Below, piece by piece: positions 1 through 32,090 of a DNA stretch of 34,519 nucleotides. The stretch covers positions 1 to 34,519 of IMG/VR virus record IMGVR_UViG_3300022936_000022. One strand, given 5' to 3'. Numbering within the stretch: the stretch's first letter is position 1; each line of letters starts with the position of its first letter. The DNA is from a virus. Lineage: Duplodnaviria; Caudoviricetes. The translations under genes and the position numbers were made by a program. Below the pieces are notes generated by a model, which saw only the letters and a list, made by a program, of their open reading frames with translations, was not told the DNA's origin and did no database searches.

Positions 1-84
1 CGCCGACGCCGCCGCCTCCGCCGCCTACGCCTACGCCTGCGCCGCCGACGCCGCCGCCTCCGCCGCCTACGCCGACGCCGCCAC
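1..84. repeat. Low-complexity GCC/GAC/TAC/TCC coding repeat
   Basis: GCCGACGCCGCCGCCTCCGCCGCCTACGCC occurs twice; it encodes A/D/S/Y repeats. Confidence 0.85.
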
Positions 85-184
85 CCGTGACGGAGTGCTG
101 TCAAAAGCCGCTGAAATTGGCGTCCAGGCCCTTAAAAAGCTCGGGTCAAAGGGCGTTGAATGGCTCGATCTGTGCGACGAGTGA
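2..184 (+). CDS. Partial (5'-truncated) Ala-rich repeat phage protein
   Basis: Frame 2 is open from the window edge: ADAAASAAYAYACAADAAASAAYADAATRDGVLSKAAEIGVQALKKLGSKGVEWLDLCDE*; TGA at 182-184 overlaps the next GTG. Confidence 0.75.
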   Translation, partial: ADAAASAAYAYACAADAAASAAYADAATRDGVLSKAAEIGVQALKKLGSKGVEWLDLCDE

Positions 185-4632: not shown

Positions 4633-6543
4633 ATGATCGACGTACCCAACACAGCAGCAGAGAGTGGCACCGGATTCGACGATCTGGAAGACCAACTGAC
4701 GGCGTGTGTTCAGCATTTCGAGGAAGCAGAGAACTCCGGGCGCGAGGCTCGGGAACTGTCCGTCCGGGACCGCTGGTATTACGACAATGAGCAGTGGACG
4801 CCGGAAGAACTAAGCATCCTGCGCAAGCGTAAGCAGCCTCCGCTTACCATCAACTACATCAAGAAGAAGGTCGAAGTCCTGCGCGGCTATGAGCGCAAGG
4901 TACGTTCCGACCCGAAAGCTTTCCCCCGCACTCCGACAGAAGAAGCCCGCGCAGACGCAGCGACGGACAGCCTACGGTTTGTTGCCGATCAGAACGACTA
5001 CGACGAGATTCGCTCCAACATCTACGAGAACCTGCTGATTGAAGGCACGGGCGGAGTTGATGTGGTGGTCGAGCAGACCAAGATCGGCGATTACAAGATC
5101 GTCTACAAGCGCATCCCGTGGGATCGCCTGTTCTGGGACCCGCACAGCTACGAGAAAGACTTTTCCGACGCCAATTACAAGGGAATTGTGATTTGGATGG
5201 ACCGTAGCGAGGCTGAGGACAAGTGGCCTGATGCGCGGGATGCCATTGAGAACACCTGCTCTGGCGGTGGTTCTAGCGCCTTCTCCGAGGTGTACGAAGA
5301 CAAGCCGCGCTTCCAAATCTGGACCGACAGCCGCCGTAAGCGTGTGCGGATCGTGCAGATTCACTACAAGTGGCGCGGTGAATGGCTGGTGGCAACGTAC
5401 ACCAAGGGCGGTTTCCTCGAAGAACCCGTTAAGTCCCCGTATCTGGACAAAGATGGCGATTCGTGCAGTTCGCTCATCATGCGCTCTGCCTACATTGACC
5501 AGGAGAACAACCGCTACGGCGATGTTCGCAGTCTGATCAGCCTGCAAGACGAAATCAACAAGCGTCGTTCCAAGGCTCTGCACCTGATGAGCGTGCGGCA
5601 GACCTTTGGCGACAAGACCGCCATTGCCGACACTCAAGCAGCCAAGAACGAGCTTGCCAAGCCTGATGGGCACGTTGAAACCAATGCAGGCGCAGAGTTC
5701 GGGAAGAACTTCGGCATTCTCCCCACTGGCGACATGGCGCAAGGTCAAGTCCTGCTCATGCAGCAAGCAGTGCAGGAGATGCAGGCCAGCGGCCCTAACC
5801 CTGCTTTGGCTGGCAAGGACACATCCCTGCGCTCTGGCCGTGCCATCCAAGCCCAGCAGCAAGGCGGCGCGGTAGAGATTGAACCGGGCCTAGATGACCT
5901 CAAGCAGTTCTCCCGCGACATTTACGAGGCTACATGGTCGCGTATCAAACAGTTCTGGACCGCTGAAAAGTGGGTGCGCGTCACTGATGATGAACGTAAT
6001 CTAAAGTGGGTTGGCCTGAACAAGCCCGTGACGATGGAGCAGAAGATTGCCCAGCAACTGGAGCAGGTCCCGCCAGAAGCCCAAGAGCAGGCAATGGCTG
6101 AAATCATGGCGATGAACGGCATTCAAAGCCCGTATGACCCGCGTCTGAAACAAGTTGTCGAGACTGAAAACAGCGTCTCCGACTTGGATGTGGACATTGT
6201 GATCGAGGAAGGTCCGGACATTGCCAGCCTGCAAAGCGAGCAGTTCGAGATTCTTGCTGGACTGGCTCAGTCTGGAATGCAAATCCCCGCCGAAGTCATC
6301 ATCATGGCTTCCAGCCTGCGGAACAAGGATGCGCTGATCGAGAAGATCGAGAAAGCACAACAACAGCAGGCCCAAGCGCAACAGCAAGCCGCCCAACAGG
6401 CAGGCCAGCTTGCGCAAGAGAAGGCCCAATCCGAAGCGCAGAACAAGTCCGCTCAGTCGCAGAAGTACCTTGCAGAAGCTGAGGGGACCGAGATTGACAA
6501 CGCGGCCAAGGCCCAGAGTCTGCTTAACCCAATGGTGATGTAA
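4633..6543 (+). CDS. Portal protein (P22-like podovirus type)
   Basis: YYDNEQW...L..RKQPPLTINYI, QDEINKRRSK, SGRAIQAQQQGG motifs and a Gln-rich C-terminal barrel; follows terL. Confidence 0.93.
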   Translation: MIDVPNTAAESGTGFDDLEDQLTACVQHFEEAENSGREARELSVRDRWYYDNEQWTPEELSILRKRKQPPLTINYIKKKVEVLRGYERKVRSDPKAFPRTPTEEARADAATDSLRFVADQNDYDEIRSNIYENLLIEGTGGVDVVVEQTKIGDYKIVYKRIPWDRLFWDPHSYEKDFSDANYKGIVIWMDRSEAEDKWPDARDAIENTCSGGGSSAFSEVYEDKPRFQIWTDSRRKRVRIVQIHYKWRGEWLVATYTKGGFLEEPVKSPYLDKDGDSCSSLIMRSAYIDQENNRYGDVRSLISLQDEINKRRSKALHLMSVRQTFGDKTAIADTQAAKNELAKPDGHVETNAGAEFGKNFGILPTGDMAQGQVLLMQQAVQEMQASGPNPALAGKDTSLRSGRAIQAQQQGGAVEIEPGLDDLKQFSRDIYEATWSRIKQFWTAEKWVRVTDDERNLKWVGLNKPVTMEQKIAQQLEQVPPEAQEQAMAEIMAMNGIQSPYDPRLKQVVETENSVSDLDVDIVIEEGPDIASLQSEQFEILAGLAQSGMQIPAEVIIMASSLRNKDALIEKIEKAQQQQAQAQQQAAQQAGQLAQEKAQSEAQNKSAQSQKYLAEAEGTEIDNAAKAQSLLNPMVM

Positions 6544-23959: not shown

Positions 23960-24166
23960 TTAGTAAAGAACGCTCTTCGTGATCCGATAAACGCGCATGG
24001 CTCTAATTCCGGAGCCGACACGCAGCACCATGAATATTCGCTGCGTCCTGTTATGGACCCAATCCCTACTCTTGGAAGCCACAAAATCAGGGTCGAAGCA
24101 CCGCAATTGCCTATGAGTGCGAAGCCTGCTACTCCTGCCAACTTCTGCGTGTTTACGCTCTTTCAT
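23960..24166 (-). CDS. Hypothetical basic protein
   Basis: 68 aa; ATGA coupling with the HAD gene stop. Confidence 0.45.
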   Translation of the reverse strand: MKERKHAEVGRSSRLRTHRQLRCFDPDFVASKSRDWVHNRTQRIFMVLRVGSGIRAMRVYRITKSVLY

Positions 24167-24687
24167 CGCGGTCCTTCCTGCCCGGCCTGGGCATCAGATG
24201 TGGGAGTGGTGCGGCGGCAGTCGTACTCGCTGATGTTCAGAATGCTGCAAAGCTTGGTGAACGGAGCCCATGTCAGGCCGTCAAACCCGCTGGTCTGCGC
24301 GAAGAATTCCATCTGCCCGGGCAGCATGTCGCTGTCGTCGTCCACGATGGCGTAGCTTTCCACCTCGGGATGCATGTCGAGCCATGCCTGAATCTCGCGC
24401 CCACGGCGGCAGGTGTCGGTCGGACCCTCGTAATAGCGGCCCGTCCTGTCGATGATGGGCAAACCCAGCGCGGGGCCGATGGCCTCCCAGTCGTCGTGGA
24501 GCCGCCATGTAGACGAAAGAACGATCTTCACGCGCCCATCACGGCAGAGCCCGCGCACCAGCTCCACGGCCTGCATGTCAAACAGTGCAAGCCCCTTTGG
24601 CGTCACATCGTGCGGGATGTTGCCAAGCACGGTTGCGCTCCGGACACTATTGAGCACGCCGTCAATGTCGAGGAATAGGACTTTCAC
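24163..24687 (-). CDS. HAD-superfamily phosphatase, Swiss-Army-Knife RNA-repair type (HAD_SAK-like)
   Basis: FLDIDGVLN, IVLSSTWR, RGREIQAWL, YAIVDDDSDM, GLT motifs. Confidence 0.9.
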   Translation of the reverse strand: MKVLFLDIDGVLNSVRSATVLGNIPHDVTPKGLALFDMQAVELVRGLCRDGRVKIVLSSTWRLHDDWEAIGPALGLPIIDRTGRYYEGPTDTCRRGREIQAWLDMHPEVESYAIVDDDSDMLPGQMEFFAQTSGFDGLTWAPFTKLCSILNISEYDCRRTTPTSDAQAGQEGPR

Positions 24688-25762: not shown

Positions 25763-26532
25763 TCGGACGCCCCTTGATCGGCCTGGGCAGAGGTAGAGCC
25801 ATCTCCCTGGCTAGCGGGAGTGGGTGCCAGAGCAGCGCTGTCGCCCTTGGCAGGCGGGATATTGGCGAGAGCGGCGCGGGCTGCTCTGATAATTTCGGAC
25901 GCTCGGACGTTTCCTTCGTCAATTGAACCAGTTGGGTCAGTGACTCCGTTGGAGAAATCCCCGTGCACTTCGCACATTTCAACTAACTGGGCGAGCGCGT
26001 CAACGTCCAGCACCTTGCGCACATCCCCGCTGGGTGCGGTAGGCGGTGTAGTGGCGAGGCTGGACAGCCACTGAGCGCCACGATTGAACGCGATGCACTC
26101 TTTCGTGCCTTGCCTGTAGCCGTAGTTCGCAAAGCCGTATTCGATTCCCTTGCGAACATCCACGCCACCCACTAAGGGCGCATCCCCGCAGCCAGCCATA
26201 GCAGGCAATGGAGTAGCTGCGAGGGCGCGTCCTTCGAGCATGATCGAGCCTTCACCGGGGTATTCCTCCAGCCAGCAGTAAGTGCCACGCGGAGCGGGTG
26301 CGCCGTCTGCATCTTGGCCTTCATCGCGTAGGGCGATGCACACCTCTTGCTCCATCTGGTCGGCGGTGCGATCCGGCGCGACAAACTCCAGCGCCTCCAG
26401 CAATTGCGAGCCTGACAGCACCATCGGCGGAAGGTCGTATTTCAAGCCGAAGGGGCGGCAGTTTTCCATTGGGTTGCGGGGCACGCTGGGCGCATCCACA
26501 GGAGCGGCTACACGGTTGGTTTCAGTGGTCAT
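25759..26532 (-). CDS. Mosaic hypothetical early protein
   Basis: 257 aa with several domains joined by A/P-rich linkers; coupled to neighbours. Confidence 0.7.
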   Translation of the reverse strand: MTTETNRVAAPVDAPSVPRNPMENCRPFGLKYDLPPMVLSGSQLLEALEFVAPDRTADQMEQEVCIALRDEGQDADGAPAPRGTYCWLEEYPGEGSIMLEGRALAATPLPAMAGCGDAPLVGGVDVRKGIEYGFANYGYRQGTKECIAFNRGAQWLSSLATTPPTAPSGDVRKVLDVDALAQLVEMCEVHGDFSNGVTDPTGSIDEGNVRASEIIRAARAALANIPPAKGDSAALAPTPASQGDGSTSAQADQGASE

Positions 26533-26903
26533 GGCATGGCCTTCCCGATTTCAGAGGCTGCGCGGACGATTGCGCGGCGGGTGGCTGCGGCTTGATCCTG
26601 TCCGGCATACAGCGACCCCACGCAAAAAGCGGCTGGCACGTCCGGCTCATGCCAAGCGCGGGCGATTACAACGTCATTTGCGGTTTCGGGGTGCGCATTT
26701 TTGAATGCGAGCGAGATCCTGAGGCTCACAGCCAGCCGCAGCGCATCGCCGTCATCGGTGAGCGGATTCCAGCCTTCCCCGGAAATTGGGCTCTGGCCGC
26801 GCAGAGCGAAGTAGCCCGGCTCATCGCCTAGCGTCACCCATGCGTCAATGTCAACGCCAGCAGCCTTCGCCGCCAACTCCAGCAATTCACGGTCAGTGGT
26901 CAT
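26529..26903 (-). CDS. Hypothetical protein, TDRELLE/WNPL.DDGDALRLAV family, copy 1
   Basis: AAGGA RBS before ATG 26903; paralog of 31588..31932. Confidence 0.8.
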   Translation of the reverse strand: MTTDRELLELAAKAAGVDIDAWVTLGDEPGYFALRGQSPISGEGWNPLTDDGDALRLAVSLRISLAFKNAHPETANDVVIARAWHEPDVPAAFCVGSLYAGQDQAAATRRAIVRAASEIGKAMP

Positions 26904-27387
26904 GGTTTGCATCCTTCATTGCAGCGATCTTTCGTTCGAGATACTTGCGCAGCGGCATGGGGGCGTGATCAACATCGACATGACCTGCCCACCAGTCGGC
27001 CTCATCCAGAAGCTCGTTGATAAATTCCGGAGTTGCCCCCATAGGAGCGGCTGGCTGTGGTGGGGTGGCGTAGAGCGGGCGCACGGTCAAGGCGGCCTGA
27101 TCGCACTCTGCGTACATGCTCTTGTCGGCCTCTGCCGATTGCAGCGACTCGCTGACCGGGAATTGAAGACTTTCGGTCCCGTCGATCTGCCAGAAAACGC
27201 CGAACGCTACCGGCTCCGCTCCCCCTGCCCCTTGAGCAGCTAGGCGCTCTACTTCTGCGCGGAGGGCTTCCAACGCCGCTACATCACGGCTCCGTCCTGA
27301 CTTGTGGGCGCGCTCGATCAGCGGCTTGATGATGCGAACCACGCTATCAACGGAGGCTTCCCCCGAAGTGCTGTTTTCGTTGCTCAT
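26893..27387 (-). CDS. Hypothetical early protein (EPVA...RPLY module)
   Basis: AAGGA RBS before ATG 27387; AEPVA and VRPLYATPPQP motifs common in lambdoid Ea-region proteins. Confidence 0.7.
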   Translation of the reverse strand: MSNENSTSGEASVDSVVRIIKPLIERAHKSGRSRDVAALEALRAEVERLAAQGAGGAEPVAFGVFWQIDGTESLQFPVSESLQSAEADKSMYAECDQAALTVRPLYATPPQPAAPMGATPEFINELLDEADWWAGHVDVDHAPMPLRKYLERKIAAMKDANHDH

Positions 27388-28004: not shown

Positions 28005-28874
28005 TTACTTCACGTTAACAAAAGGGACTGGCGCAGAGCCAAGCATTTGCTGTGGCAACTTGCCATCCCACTTTGCGATTGCTTGCAGTTGGACGTAGCC
28101 AACACCGCCTTGCTTTTCGACGGCAGCCGCTTGGATGGCGATGGCCTTTGCCTCCCCCTCAGCCTGCGCAACCCGTGCTTCCGCCTCAAACTTCGCCTTT
28201 TCTAGATTGCGCTTGGCAGTTTCCGCCTTCTGGCTGGCTGTCACCTTTTCTTCAATGGCGGCATCAAAAGATTTGCTGAATCCGAAGTTGACAAGGTTCA
28301 CCGATTGAACCGTCAGGTGGAACGGGGCCAGTTTGGAATTCAGCGTCTTGCTGATGGTGTCGCTTACCTCTTGGCGTTTGGTAATCAACTCTTCCGCCGT
28401 GTAGTGTGAAACAACGCTCTTGAATACCTCGTATGCAGCGGGCACCACATAGGCGGCCTCGTACTGCAAAGATGGATTGAGGATGAAGATTTCCTTCGCC
28501 TTTCCGGGGTCGGTGCGATAGTTGACCGTCAGCGTCGAATGAACGGATTGCAGATCGCGGCTACCAGCTTCCGCTTTGTTTGCAGCGGCCACATCGACGC
28601 CGGTAAACACTTGGTGGACATTGGACACGGGAAGGATGAAATGCGCTCCTTCGCTAAGCGTCTTGCCACTGATCTTGCCAAACGTGGTGACGATGCCAAT
28701 ATGGGACGGCGCTACCTGCGTGAAGCTGGCGAATGCCACACAGACGACCGCTAACACCAAGGCCGTCAGAGCGCCGAATCGTGGCAGTTTGCGTTCCTCT
28801 GGCGCAAAGACGATTGGGACCACAGCGAATGCCAGCACAGCCAGCGCGAACAGAAAAATTGCAGTTGTCAGCAT
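28005..28874 (-). CDS. SPFH/Band-7 (prohibitin-like) membrane protein
   Basis: Two N-terminal TM segments, V...H.GIV..FG, SRDLQ.V, YTAEELITKR, AIE.KV.A.Q.A, A.GEA.A, KWDGKLP; GGAGA RBS. Confidence 0.93.
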   Translation of the reverse strand: MLTTAIFLFALAVLAFAVVPIVFAPEERKLPRFGALTALVLAVVCVAFASFTQVAPSHIGIVTTFGKISGKTLSEGAHFILPVSNVHQVFTGVDVAAANKAEAGSRDLQSVHSTLTVNYRTDPGKAKEIFILNPSLQYEAAYVVPAAYEVFKSVVSHYTAEELITKRQEVSDTISKTLNSKLAPFHLTVQSVNLVNFGFSKSFDAAIEEKVTASQKAETAKRNLEKAKFEAEARVAQAEGEAKAIAIQAAAVEKQGGVGYVQLQAIAKWDGKLPQQMLGSAPVPFVNVK

Positions 28875-29041: not shown

Positions 29042-29245
29042 TTATGCCTCTAGGCGCTTCCTGATTAGCCACGCCCTGCGAGACTCTGCATTCGTTCTGG
29101 GGCGCACGCCAAGTTGCTTCAAAGCGGTTCTGACGGCAGAGCGGCTATGCCCCACGGCTGCGGCTATCTGAGGCTGAGAGTAGCCCGCCGTGTACATCTG
29201 AACGGCCACCTTAGCTTGCGGCATCTTCATTACGCTAGCGGGCAT
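29042..29245 (-). CDS. HTH DNA-binding protein
   Basis: MY.AGYSQPQIAAAVGHSRSAVRTALKQLGV.PR classic HTH; start uncertain (29245, 29230 or 29224). Confidence 0.75.
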   Translation of the reverse strand: MPASVMKMPQAKVAVQMYTAGYSQPQIAAAVGHSRSAVRTALKQLGVRPRTNAESRRAWLIRKRLEA

Positions 29246-29882
29246 CGGGAACCCCGCAGCGGTTTTTAATGTTGAGCAGCGTTGCGTCAACCAAGGTCAG
29301 AAATTCGCTGCGCCGCTGGTTAAGCATTCGTATTTCCTCGGCGTAGTCGTGCAGCCAGAGCCGGAATGTAAAAAGCTGATGATCTTGCGGGAAGTCGGAG
29401 CAGTAGCTACAGAAGTCCACCCAATCACGGCCAGTACAGTCAAGATGCCCGATTAGTTGCCACTTGTAGGCCGGGTCATAGCTGTTGCGCAGAATGCTGG
29501 CATAGTGCGTGCTGGCGATAACGGCCTTTACCTCCAGCGCCCCATCTTTGTCTACCAGACCATCGGGGGAGTCACCCCAATCGCCGCAGTCAAAGAATCC
29601 GCCGTTAGTAACCGTGCAGAATCTCTCGTCTGCGTACAACATCTTCGCTACCGGCTCCTGCTCATGGCCGCGCTCAGTATGGTCGTTGGAGAAACTGAAC
29701 TCAGCCTTCTTACCTGTCAGTCGTTCAAGGGCCAGTTGTAGGGCGTACCGCTTGGCGGGCTCTCCAAAGGCAGAGCCATAGTTAGCCATGAAGCATCCGA
29801 AGCTGGACGCAGTAGGCTTGCCAAGGCGCAACGCAGCCCACTCGTCGCTATTCTGCTCAACATCATAGAACTTAGTCGGCAT
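29235..29882 (-). CDS. YqaJ / lambda-exonuclease family recombination nuclease
   Basis: VEQNSDEW..LRLGK.TAS, G.EQEP.A, SPDGLV, LEVK, Y.WQ..G.L..TGR.W.DF.SY. Confidence 0.93.
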   Translation of the reverse strand: MPTKFYDVEQNSDEWAALRLGKPTASSFGCFMANYGSAFGEPAKRYALQLALERLTGKKAEFSFSNDHTERGHEQEPVAKMLYADERFCTVTNGGFFDCGDWGDSPDGLVDKDGALEVKAVIASTHYASILRNSYDPAYKWQLIGHLDCTGRDWVDFCSYCSDFPQDHQLFTFRLWLHDYAEEIRMLNQRRSEFLTLVDATLLNIKNRCGVPDAR

Positions 29883-30420
29883 TCGGTTCCTCCGGCACAG
29901 CGGGCCGCTCAGGCGGCAACGTACACTCAGCGATCAACTGCGCTTCGTGGTCTTCGGACAGATCCATCCGGGCCAGGATCGCGTCAAGATTGCCATCGCG
30001 CTTATAGGCCGCTTTGGCGTTGTCCCATGCCTTCGCGTTGTCAGGCGTAAGAAGTCGTCGCGTAGGGGCTTGAGGGCTGATGCGCAGACCTTCCATCGTC
30101 TCTTTGCCGAACTTGACGTTCTTGTCAACGTAGACCGTAATCGCCACGTTGTTCCAATCATCAATGAATGCCGATCCGGTAAGCGACTTCATGGTCTTAC
30201 TGTTGGTGGCGTTAAGAATCATGGGCTTCAATGGCTCGCCTGGGCGAATCTCACGCTGAACAAAGAATGCGGTGTTGAATCGGTCCTTCGTTTTTTTCGT
30301 CTTGTCGCCCTCAAGCCTGACAAACTTCACGGTCAGGACGGTCGGCTCAACAATGTCGGCGCTTGATAGATAAGGCGAATCGAACGCCTTGCGGAAGTGG
30401 GTTTTTCCTTCGTCGCTCAC
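29872..30420 (-). CDS. Putative ssDNA-binding/annealing partner of the exonuclease
   Basis: KTHFRK..DSPYL, KPMILNATN.K, IDDW....IT.Y, GLRI; sits at the bet/erf position directly upstream of the exonuclease. Confidence 0.65.
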   Translation of the reverse strand: MSDEGKTHFRKAFDSPYLSSADIVEPTVLTVKFVRLEGDKTKKTKDRFNTAFFVQREIRPGEPLKPMILNATNSKTMKSLTGSAFIDDWNNVAITVYVDKNVKFGKETMEGLRISPQAPTRRLLTPDNAKAWDNAKAAYKRDGNLDAILARMDLSEDHEAQLIAECTLPPERPAVPEEPNAD

Positions 30421-30743: not shown

Positions 30744-30986
30744 CTACAAGGCGGTCATTCTGCGGATTCTTTCCGCGCAATCTCGTGCCGCAAGAGTTCC
30801 GCTAGGCCGATACCCGGCGTAGTTGCTGGCCTCGATATCGTCTGCGATCAATGCGCAGCGTTCACGCTCGTTCGCCAGTTGCTTGTCAAACCAAGTCTCC
30901 AATGCGTCCCACGCAACTTGCACTTCTTGCGGATGTACGGCCAGCCGGTAGTTCAGAGCATGCAGGTGAAGATCACTATCATCCAT
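30744..30986 (-). CDS. Hypothetical protein (ERERCA...A..IR motif)
   Basis: AGGAG RBS; common small phage protein motif. Confidence 0.7.
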   Translation of the reverse strand: MDDSDLHLHALNYRLAVHPQEVQVAWDALETWFDKQLANERERCALIADDIEASNYAGYRPSGTLAARDCAERIRRMTAL

Positions 30987-31009: not shown

Positions 31010-31368
31010 AATGCTTCTTGGTGAACGGCGGAGTGGGCGGAGCAAAGCCAACCCTGTTAAGGGTTAACTAGCTTCAATGCTTCCCGGAGCCACAGCATCA
31101 GGGCATCGCTGGAGTCGATCTAAGGCGCTCCAGTTGGAATCCTTCTGCCGTCCTTGAACGACACCCACGGGCGATTCCATTACGCCAAAACCCGTCACGC
31201 TCCATGTGCCTGTTGGAGCCTTGATACCGCTGCACAGTCGTCCCACAGCGGCCAGAATGCAGAAAGCCCGTTAGGTTTTCTACTCTCTGCTTGGCGGCGT
31301 GACCCATTTCTGGGCCAGAGAGTAGAAGCCTAACGGGCCTCTTACCGTCACGCCGCCAAGCGATGACA
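31010..31368 (-). ncRNA. Candidate large structured ncRNA / regulatory leader
   Basis: Crossed 15-bp and ~20-bp complementarities followed by at least six further hairpins; no convincing ORF; own promoter. Ends approximate. Confidence 0.65.
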
Positions 31369-31374
31369 GGAGAA

Positions 31375-31402
31375 ATATTAGCACAGCCAACGAGGTTTGC
31401 AA
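31375..31402 (-). promoter_or_regulatory. Sigma70 promoter heading the structured RNA
   Basis: Minus strand TTGCAA, 16 nt ending in TGTGC (extended -10 TGn), TAATAT; predicted +1 near 31368. Confidence 0.6.
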
Positions 31403-31408
31403 GACCGT

Positions 31409-31591
31409 TCATCGGAGCCACATCACAGCTTCATCCAGAACCACCCAAGCCCCAAGCAGAGCAAGGCCGCCTACAACGAGAATTCCTAGCAGTCCAGCAA
31501 GCCCAGCCCATAGACCGCTAGTGTTCTCTTCCTCTGGCAGGCAGCAAGCAGCAGGAGCAGGGCATTTGTTGCGGCAGGTGGAGCAGGTCAT
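31409..31591 (-). CDS. Small Cys-rich protein with C-terminal TM helix
   Basis: MTCSTCRNKCPAPAACC...LWAGLAGLLGILVVGGLALLGAWVVL; ATGA coupling. Confidence 0.7.
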   Translation of the reverse strand: MTCSTCRNKCPAPAACCLPEEENTSGLWAGLAGLLGILVVGGLALLGAWVVLDEAVMWLR

Positions 31592-31932
31592 GGCATGGCC
31601 TTTCCGATTTCTACGGCGGTCCGGACGATAGCGCGGCGCGTTGCGGCGTAGGCGTCGCCATCGCCCCACTCGCCCAAGCTGTGGGTTTTATTCAACCAAG
31701 AAGCGCGAGCAAGCGACTTCCCGACCACGTCCGGAAGTTCAGGTCCAACGCTGATCCCCAGCTTCACAGCCAGCCGCAGCGCATCGCCGTCATCGCGCAA
31801 CGGATTCCACACGCCGCCATCGGGATCGTCGTTGCGAATTCCCCATACGTCAGGCGTTATGTCCCACTCGTGCCAAACGGGATTCATGCCGATGGCTCTT
31901 GCCGCAGCTTCCAGCAATTCACGATCAGTCAT
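31588..31932 (-). CDS. Hypothetical protein, TDRELLE/WNPL.DDGDALRLAV family, copy 2
   Basis: Paralog of 26529..26903; ATGA coupling. Confidence 0.8.
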   Translation of the reverse strand: MTDRELLEAAARAIGMNPVWHEWDITPDVWGIRNDDPDGGVWNPLRDDGDALRLAVKLGISVGPELPDVVGKSLARASWLNKTHSLGEWGDGDAYAATRRAIVRTAVEIGKAMP

Positions 31933-32090
31933 TGCAACACCCCCGCAACAACAGCAGCAATGAAGCCAGCAGCACAACCCCACCAGAAAGAGGCAGGGTA
32001 GGGCCTAGCAGGACGCTCCAGAGCGCAGGCATAGTCGCAGTGCTTGGGGAACGCCAAGACGCTAGAACGGTTGTAGCAGCGGGTTTGCAT
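31929..32090 (-). CDS. Small protein with C-terminal TM helix
   Basis: MQTRCYNRS...AF....YACALER...FWWGCAAGFIAAVVAGVLQ; AAGGA RBS. Confidence 0.65.
   Translation of the reverse strand: MQTRCYNRSSVLAFPKHCDYACALERPARPYPASFWWGCAAGFIAAVVAGVLQ

Follow-up and report, generated by a model that had tools for sequence, protein, structure and literature searches.

The window, a stretch of 34,519 nt, belongs to a podovirus-like phage record in which gene calls and family profiles gave a lambdoid gene order, with terminase, portal, capsid and ejection genes and NinB/NinG. A single Cro-like gene was located at the divergent control region, and domain profiles revealed neither a CI nor an integrase gene in the window. 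A 12,908-nt contig of run X1 begins at window position 31766, and a record of equal length and depth to this contig meets window position 89 at record base 6054. From these overlaps the genome is likely a circle; the 3,211 nt outside the window would fall between ninB and the last HTH-like frame, a place at which replication genes are expected. Window positions 1–88 comprise short repeats coding for an Ala/Tyr-rich C-terminus, and the assembly breaks there. The early operon includes a phrog_5086 paralogue pair (31588–31983 and 26529–26912), the first of which is where the X1 contigs break, and it also encodes an SPFH/Band-7 protein (28005–28874) and a HAD_SAK_2 RNA-repair-type phosphatase (24163–24687).

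The element described here (the cassette) was located on the minus strand, in an intergenic gap of 422 nt that lies ~1.2 kb from the start of the leftward early operon. It was flanked by the following features:

31409..31591, minus strand: 60-aa early gene upstream of the element, with 7 nt between its stop and the -35 box
30997-30993, minus strand: ribosome-binding site AGGAG before the 80-aa gene (sequence)
30744..30986, minus strand: first gene downstream of the element, 80 aa, of no family (ORF list and profiles)
29872..30420, minus strand: conserved 182-aa protein, phrog_21613, function not annotated (profile match)
29235..29882, minus strand: YqaJ-like exonuclease (domain profile match)

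The initial annotation had taken these genes for an exonuclease/annealing operon; the YqaJ exonuclease was confirmed, whereas the neighbouring 182-aa protein carries no functional assignment. In a contig of run X2, the same 60-aa gene is followed by a different, TTGACA-containing promoter-like sequence, which makes the cassette look portable.

The feature is an RNA element of ~110 nt with two mutually exclusive pairings, and it belongs to no catalogued RNA family. It was composed of the following parts:

31397..31402, minus strand: predicted -35 box TTGCAA (sequence; scored below the promoter-scan threshold)
31375..31383, minus strand: predicted extended -10 box TGnTAATAT (sequence; TAnnnT enrichment in the family)
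31347..31367, minus strand: H1, the 5' target hairpin, which includes A (folding; its stem covaries at 4/5 pairs in type I)
31359-31354, minus strand: H1 loop UUGGCG (folding)
31361-31347, minus strand: segment A within H1 (inverted repeat)
31316..31338, minus strand: B, the 5' strand of stem P1 (repeat search and folding)
31302..31315, minus strand: P2 hairpin with GAAA tetraloop at 31310-31307 (folding)
31289..31303, minus strand: A', the antisense segment (repeat and folding)
31296-31291, minus strand: CGCCAA within A', single-stranded in the finished fold, opening cost 0.1–1.3 kcal/mol
31266..31289, minus strand: B', the 3' strand of P1, 10+12 bp with a G/C-rich base (repeat and folding)
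31261..31265, minus strand: weak U run TTTCT after P1, a predicted leaky termination point (sequence)

A and A' form a perfect 15-nt inverted repeat (31347–31361 and 31289–31303), as first annotated. It is the sole 15-mer inverted repeat within 100 nt anywhere in the window, and none appeared in 100 Markov-1 resamples (0/100). The segment 31255–31368 folded with z = −7.3 against shuffles; therefore, neither A/A' nor B/B' is a product of chance. The B/B' stem, described at first as 10+10 pairs, is real and consists of 10 bp and 12 bp around a 1×2 internal loop, and A' and B' overlap by one base (31289). A itself forms the hairpin H1 with a UUGGCG loop, which begins at the predicted transcription start (31368/31367), and P1 surrounds the GAAA hairpin and the unpaired CGCCAA. 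The crossing of the two pairings had been read as either exclusion or one very large pseudoknot. The exclusion held, but a pseudoknot with both helices in full would be sterically implausible because 0 nt separate A' from B' and 8 nt separate A from B. Across the whole window, TTGGCGG occurred in 17 copies against 8.1 expected, mostly in coding frames and with no hairpin.

Downstream of the cassette, a second RNA domain was found:

31109..31251, minus strand: second RNA domain, five hairpins colinear with locus L500 (comparison with one relative)
31251-31227, 31219-31199, 31195-31167, 31163-31146 and 31133-31109, minus strand: its hairpins (folding)
31135..31179, minus strand: predicted pseudoknot of loop 31179-31173 with 31141-31135 (L500 altered on both sides)
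31050..31065, minus strand: last hairpin before the ribosome-binding site (a part that no relative covers)

The chain of hairpins reported initially does exist, but its fold is no better than that of shuffled sequence: the 263 nt downstream of the cassette alone gave z = −1.1, and sub-blocks of the region gave +0.55 and −1.0. L500, whose cassette is the closest to that of the window, keeps all five hairpins in the corresponding places although their letters differ, and it shares the loop words and the pseudoknot with a two-sided change; its contig stops before the last hairpins. This single comparison supports the second domain as a real structure. Pattern scans for relatives of the second domain listed 18 matches, and L500 was the only relative among them. 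The single RNA of ~360 nt proposed at first was replaced by two units: the switch occupies the first ~110 nt and occurs with or without a downstream RNA. A replication-primer role for the second RNA was considered and dropped, since primase and helicase genes were present in one complete type II genome; the 3,211 nt missing from the window also sit where replication genes are expected.

Pattern scans and a Watson-Crick filter for P1 yielded at least 68 distinct elements, and over three sets the RNA family comprised at least 120 distinct phage sequences, many of them closely related. The duplex-energy filter did not discriminate in GC-rich DNA, and a Watson-Crick alignment score, whose values were bimodal, was used instead. 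Nine GC-rich coding matches, two window copies, one second match and one reverse reading were removed by hand, and L414, L003, L207 and L045 are doubtful members. The common anatomy is a promoter-like site, a 5' UUGGCG-loop hairpin, a long stem with single-stranded CGCCAA, and a U run. The 68 elements comprise 51 of type I, in the order P1, P2 hairpin, UCCGCCAAC, tetraloop hairpin P3, P1' and U run, and 17 of type II. The window cassette belongs to this rarer type II; its U run is weak, and another RNA of ~250 nt follows it. A type I model built with the window left out found the window element as its best match in the window (23.4 bits, E 0.001) and also matched six type II loci (26–36 bits). 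It matched 28/29 carrier records and 0/22 controls, the controls having been picked for sharing the 182-aa gene of the window.

The sigma70-like promoter annotated at first is a prediction from the letters: TTGCAA and TGnTAATAT stand 16 nt apart, share 8/12 consensus letters and together score below the scan threshold. The position of the box is nevertheless enriched in the family, a TAnnnT box being present there in 39/51 and 14/17 members against 25% and 18% in shuffles. The terminator claimed earlier is likewise a terminator-like stem, but with the weak run TTTCT; the run holds 4–7 T in 8 nt in type II and 7–8 T in 43/51 type I members.

The initial annotation could assign no named family, and searches outside these sets gave none either. 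Rfam gave no match to the window at the gathering threshold; around the element at E≤5, and for 20 member loci at E≤1, it gave chance matches to microRNAs and snoRNAs only. BLAST of the window element and of the L397, L500 and L457 elements against annotated phages and plasmids returned no match. None of the 120 loci listed by a pattern scan of genome contigs qualified as a member, and model R1 matched 1, 1 and 0 of 151 sampled bacterial genomes. Among 80 loci retrieved through the 182-aa neighbour, a copy within 4 kb was present in L148 only. A literature survey, mostly at the level of abstracts and with subscription papers and the PMC5737381 supplement outside its scope, found no description of the family, and the passages of PMC5737381 and PMC2864571, together with some supplement matches, did not describe it either. 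The element is thus real, conserved and uncatalogued, and it would fuse target, antisense RNA and terminator in one cassette of the C4/CI kind.

The patterns and filter of the first set demanded a TTGGCGG/CCGCCAA core and P1; therefore, only free positions and unselected helices count as evidence of covariation. Once near-duplicates and L414 were excluded, 43 of the 51 type I sequences remained, and among these 34/38 pairs changed on both sides: 17/18 in P1, 4/5 in H1, 4/5 in P2 and 3/4 in P3. Paired cells made up 94.9% in the true register and 34–44% in slid registers, and P2 and P3 were 99–100% paired and covarying. An invariant G-U pair and the GNRA loops in type I point to the strand read here as the RNA strand. 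For the type II stems, MAFFT/RNAalifold produced no alignment, and the members were checked singly. Each had its own P1 of 20–26 bp, with a mean of −39 kcal/mol versus −23 kcal/mol for cross pairs.

A second scan left positions 5 and 6 of the loop free, along with the bases opposite them, and excluded CG. Among the 86 distinct matches listed, 52 had P1, and the hexamers were Watson-Crick complementary at the free positions in 51 of these 52 against 5 of the 34 matches with no P1; the 52nd P1-bearing match pairs its hexamer by G-U. The 51 loop codes were UUGGAG (17), UUGGUC (16), UUGGUG (10), UUGGAA (5), UUGGUA (2) and UUGGAC (1). A second contact joins the loop of P2 to the linker that follows H1; it was unselected and yet complementary in 26/33 members against 6.6% of cross pairs (0/2000 permutations), and in the variant set from the second scan in 45/52 against 27%. 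The A:A' extension in type II measured 12.5 bp versus 11.1 bp in cross pairs (2/5000 permutations). The complementarity at free positions and the covarying second contact indicate, at the level of sequence, that both exclusive pairings are under selection and that the family carries a sequence code. One genome harbours two cassettes of differing loop code, the second at L710:14059-14180. This covariation is equally compatible with pairing in cis and in trans.

Every type I cassette was followed by a start codon 7–35 nt after P1 (51/51 rows). The products encoded there, from 38 profile-scanned frames, were DUF1376 initiators, DNA polymerase A, AntA, NUMOD4-HNH and HTH_39. A NUMOD4-HNH endonuclease lay directly after the type I cassette in L343, L356, L358, L359, L374, L396 and L397; homing by these endonucleases may disperse the cassette, or the cassette may hold their expression down. 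Most type II cassettes preceded 230–450 nt with no gene. One ran straight into a DUF1376 initiator, L484 and L468 had recombination genes downstream as in the window, and others faced a convergent gene. The RNAs downstream of type II cassettes fell into several unrelated sequence groups. In L483 the cassette was followed by a Betaproteobacteria-1 RNA (L483:4212-4341, 86.5 bits), divergent from the terminase genes; the 24 matches listed by Betaproteobacteria-1 pattern scans were all chance, and a chromosomal copy of this RNA had no cassette upstream. An uncatalogued conserved non-coding family of ~270 nt also occurred after type II cassettes (L457:1060-1340, L482, L507, L475, L496, L214 and L468); in many cases a convergent gene stood opposite, with lysis or integrase genes close by.

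Cultured phages with type I copies were Pseudomonas phage AH02 and Lbo-JY16. L477 (PP438408.1) is a phage of lambdoid layout whose host is recorded, perhaps wrongly, as a cyanobacterium; its cassette resembles one of proteobacterial type at 89%. A Peptidase_S24 domain was present in 0/29 carrier records versus 15/22 controls, a contrast that ignores kinship and habitat, counts S24-type repressors only and does not extend to the 3,211 nt outside the window. With kinship and habitat likewise ignored, an integrase was present in 4/29 carrier records versus 19/22 controls. Eight integrase-bearing or prophage-like carriers were found among loci and records; therefore, the element also occurs outside the non-integrating phages.

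As the window RNA grows, it was predicted to fold into H1, then A:A' as the best structure at 78–100 nt, then H1 with P1 from 104 nt. A:A' formed in the predicted nascent chains of 40/51 type I, 40/52 variant-set and 17/17 type II members, and full-length folds lacked it in 50/51, 52/52 and 11/17, respectively; the full-length minimum kept A:A' in the remaining 6/17 type II members. The last dozen bases of a transcript sit inside the polymerase, and because of this A:A' would remain paired at the moment of U-run synthesis; the default would therefore be read-through. With A blocked, P1 formed in the predicted window folding. Pairing of a finished RNA with nascent H1 in the window came to a net of about −13 kcal/mol, a rough estimate. 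A nested cofold model showed no gain for the core RNA on its target, and such a model cannot represent this type of pairing.

Here, we propose that the cassette is a self-targeting transcription attenuator in which the terminated RNA represses new transcripts, a reading to which we assign a probability of roughly 0.6. It rests on two pairings that covary, on the location of the cassette ahead of start codons and on the computed energies of its folds. It has the makings of an intrinsic attenuator, namely a G/C-based stem, a U run (weak in the window) and a competing upstream pairing. In the growing RNA, the UUGGCG loop would find its partner in the CGCCAA of the same chain, and transcription would read through. 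Finished short RNAs with the terminator-like stem formed would accumulate, exposing CGCCAA at almost no opening cost. New transcripts could be bound by them at H1 within the ~55-nt interval that precedes the appearance of a CGCCAA in the new chain itself. With H1 blocked, the terminator-like P1 would form and the operon would be shut off. We infer a functional promoter, termination at the U run and action in trans, and the outcome would be a burst of early genes followed by shut-off, with no protein involved. Superinfecting phages with the same loop code would likewise be blocked. In the window, where the U run is weak, the ~250-nt second RNA and the exonuclease operon may be gated only partly. 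The switch on the early operon suggested in the initial annotation thus gains from the covariation, the folding order, the lack of a conserved frame and the absence of CI-type repressors from the carrier records, although the switch itself measures only ~110 nt.

Other explanations could account for parts of these data. The first is a purely cis-acting attenuator, with the same folds, in which polymerase speed, pausing or an H1-binding protein of phage or host decides and the terminated RNA has no job. Cis pairing alone accounts for all the covariation, and no target was found outside the cassette. However, P2 and P3, so consistently paired and covarying, are the hairpins that present the antisense segments once folding is complete, the loop codes diversify to the point of differing between two copies in one genome, and passages of PMC4705826 describe trans kissing through the same loop in ColIb-P9; we consider this explanation unlikely. 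The second, which we regard as rather more doubtful, concerns the window subtype: P1 would not terminate, and the cassette would be the 5' module, serving in folding or processing, of a ~370-nt RNA whose pseudoknotted 3' domain acts, for example as a put-like antiterminator of the long early operon. The weak U run, the gene-free stretch after most type II cassettes, the Betaproteobacteria-1 RNA after one of them, the convergent genes that leave the RNA as the only product of some, and the hairpin chain and pseudoknot kept in L500 all fit such an RNA. Against it, the downstream RNAs belong to several unrelated groups, one type II cassette leads directly to a DUF1376 initiator, and the downstream block alone folds like shuffles.

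A C4-like small RNA, cut out (e.g., by RNase P) and repressing other phage or host messages, would make H1 a relic target. Passages of PMC5320573 present C4 as RNase P-processed and trans-acting, and two 10-nt complements to A'B' lie inside upstream early genes of the same operon (31819–31810 and 31461–31452, minus strand); two such matches arose in 6/500 shuffles, and they are either possible extra targets or chance. This explanation is nonetheless very improbable: no systematic distal target hairpins were found in 24 genomes, H1 and the linker covary with their own antisense segments, and the U run and start codon come directly after P1. Finally, a protein-coding frame with incidental stems can largely be dismissed, since the frames 31098–31421 and 31064–31246, although both open, have no family match, and the longer one begins upstream of the predicted promoter. 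The loop-to-antiloop distance is spread over three frames (7/5/4 and 18/18/15), and even the most often open frame is uninterrupted in at most 23/51 or 7/16 members; homologues conserve base pairs at both pairings and no reading frame. In L500, two of the frames are broken by stops and the remaining one encodes no comparable peptide.

Judging by gene content, the cassette may replace CI or N. More tentatively, and as a possibility that we would not call probable, a widespread group of lambdoid-layout phages with no CI might use it as their whole immunity and copy-control device, in which the terminated transcript is its own repressor, the hexamer and the second loop form a plasmid-like incompatibility code, and in the window subtype the switch licenses a pseudoknotted orphan RNA. 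For early-gene timing or the carrier state in phages of lambda-like order with no CI or N, the cassette offers a 110-nt candidate answer, and Pseudomonas phage AH02, a cultured carrier, makes it directly testable. Synthetic biology might draw on the natural loop codes, at least seven, as RNA attenuators that are already orthogonal to one another, and orphan RNAs such as Betaproteobacteria-1 gain a regulatory context.

Among known RNAs, the C4 antisense RNA (RF01695, clan CL00128) shares with the cassette a long closing stem with inner hairpins and a GCCAAC-type segment that stays single-stranded; in both, a target with a UUGGC loop lies upstream within one transcript. The complementarity between the GCCAAC-type segment (b' in C4) and the upstream UUGGC loop is found in the cassette, and the loop itself occurs in the C4 consensus and upstream in two C4 members. 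The parallel with P1 c4 and P4 CI drawn initially is therefore closer than claimed, the hexamer being shared with the C4 consensus. With the C4 (RF01695) and c4-a1b1 models, however, the window and the members scored below the Rfam gathering threshold, and true C4 loci in the same search scored 63–75 bits. The helix order in C4 is tetraloop hairpin, a' hairpin, b', whereas in type I it is a' hairpin, b', tetraloop hairpin, which puts the tetraloop hairpin 3' of the hexamer rather than 5'. The window subtype has one inner hairpin and a 15-bp single contact in place of the three-stem junction of C4. The variable a' loop with its a1 target is present in type I and absent in the window, which has a GAAA loop. 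Compared with the target leaders of C4 (c4-a1b1/IsrK-type) and phage P4 CI (seqA/seqC), the cassette target is one hairpin with no terminator of its own, and the closing stem carries the U run. The second downstream target of C4 and P4 CI (a2b2, seqC) has no counterpart: such a target appeared in 2/46 and 0/14 members, near chance, and the window has a single bare TTGGCG (31187–31182) with only 6–7 possible pairs. According to passages of PMC5320573, the variable a' loop gives C4 its specificity, RNase P cuts the RNA and it acts in trans; according to those of PMC4825925, P4 CI terminates transcription by pairing with seqA and seqC, and termination is also the predicted output of the cassette. 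The processed C4 RNA is stable and ~77 nt long.

c4-2 (RF02944), which passages of PMC5737381 describe among 224 motifs, is a phage C4 relative of similar size with a 3' U run; it differs in its consensus single strand, AGGA, and in a hairpin order like that of C4. Its model gave no match at E≤1 in five type I records and none at E≤0.01 in the window, and weak matches elsewhere. In ColIb-P9 (IncI), according to passages of PMC4705826, intramolecular GGCG:CGCC pairing turns repZ on, and the Inc RNA competes in trans for the loop; the UUGGCG loop motif is named in a reference title within that paper. The same target loop and a competition between cis and trans pairing (trans being predicted for the cassette) link the two. 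ColIb-P9 Inc, however, is an opposite-strand transcript controlling translation with a leader peptide, whereas the cassette carries its antisense segment in the same transcript with termination as the predicted output. No plus-strand promoter-like site near the element was found in a scan that could miss a weak one. Betaproteobacteria-1 (RF02932) is a multi-hairpin orphan RNA at the position of the second domain of the window, and its model gave no match to the window or L500 at E≤5. HK022 put, a two-hairpin element, likewise governs early transcription of a lambdoid phage through RNA alone, but it is not known to include an antisense switch; Rfam gave no match for the cassette. The phage C4/CI immunity RNAs are thus linked through the same loop to plasmid kissing-loop control, and the cassette would work like C4, P4 CI and ColIb-P9 yet stands outside C4 and c4-2 by model, helix order and second target.
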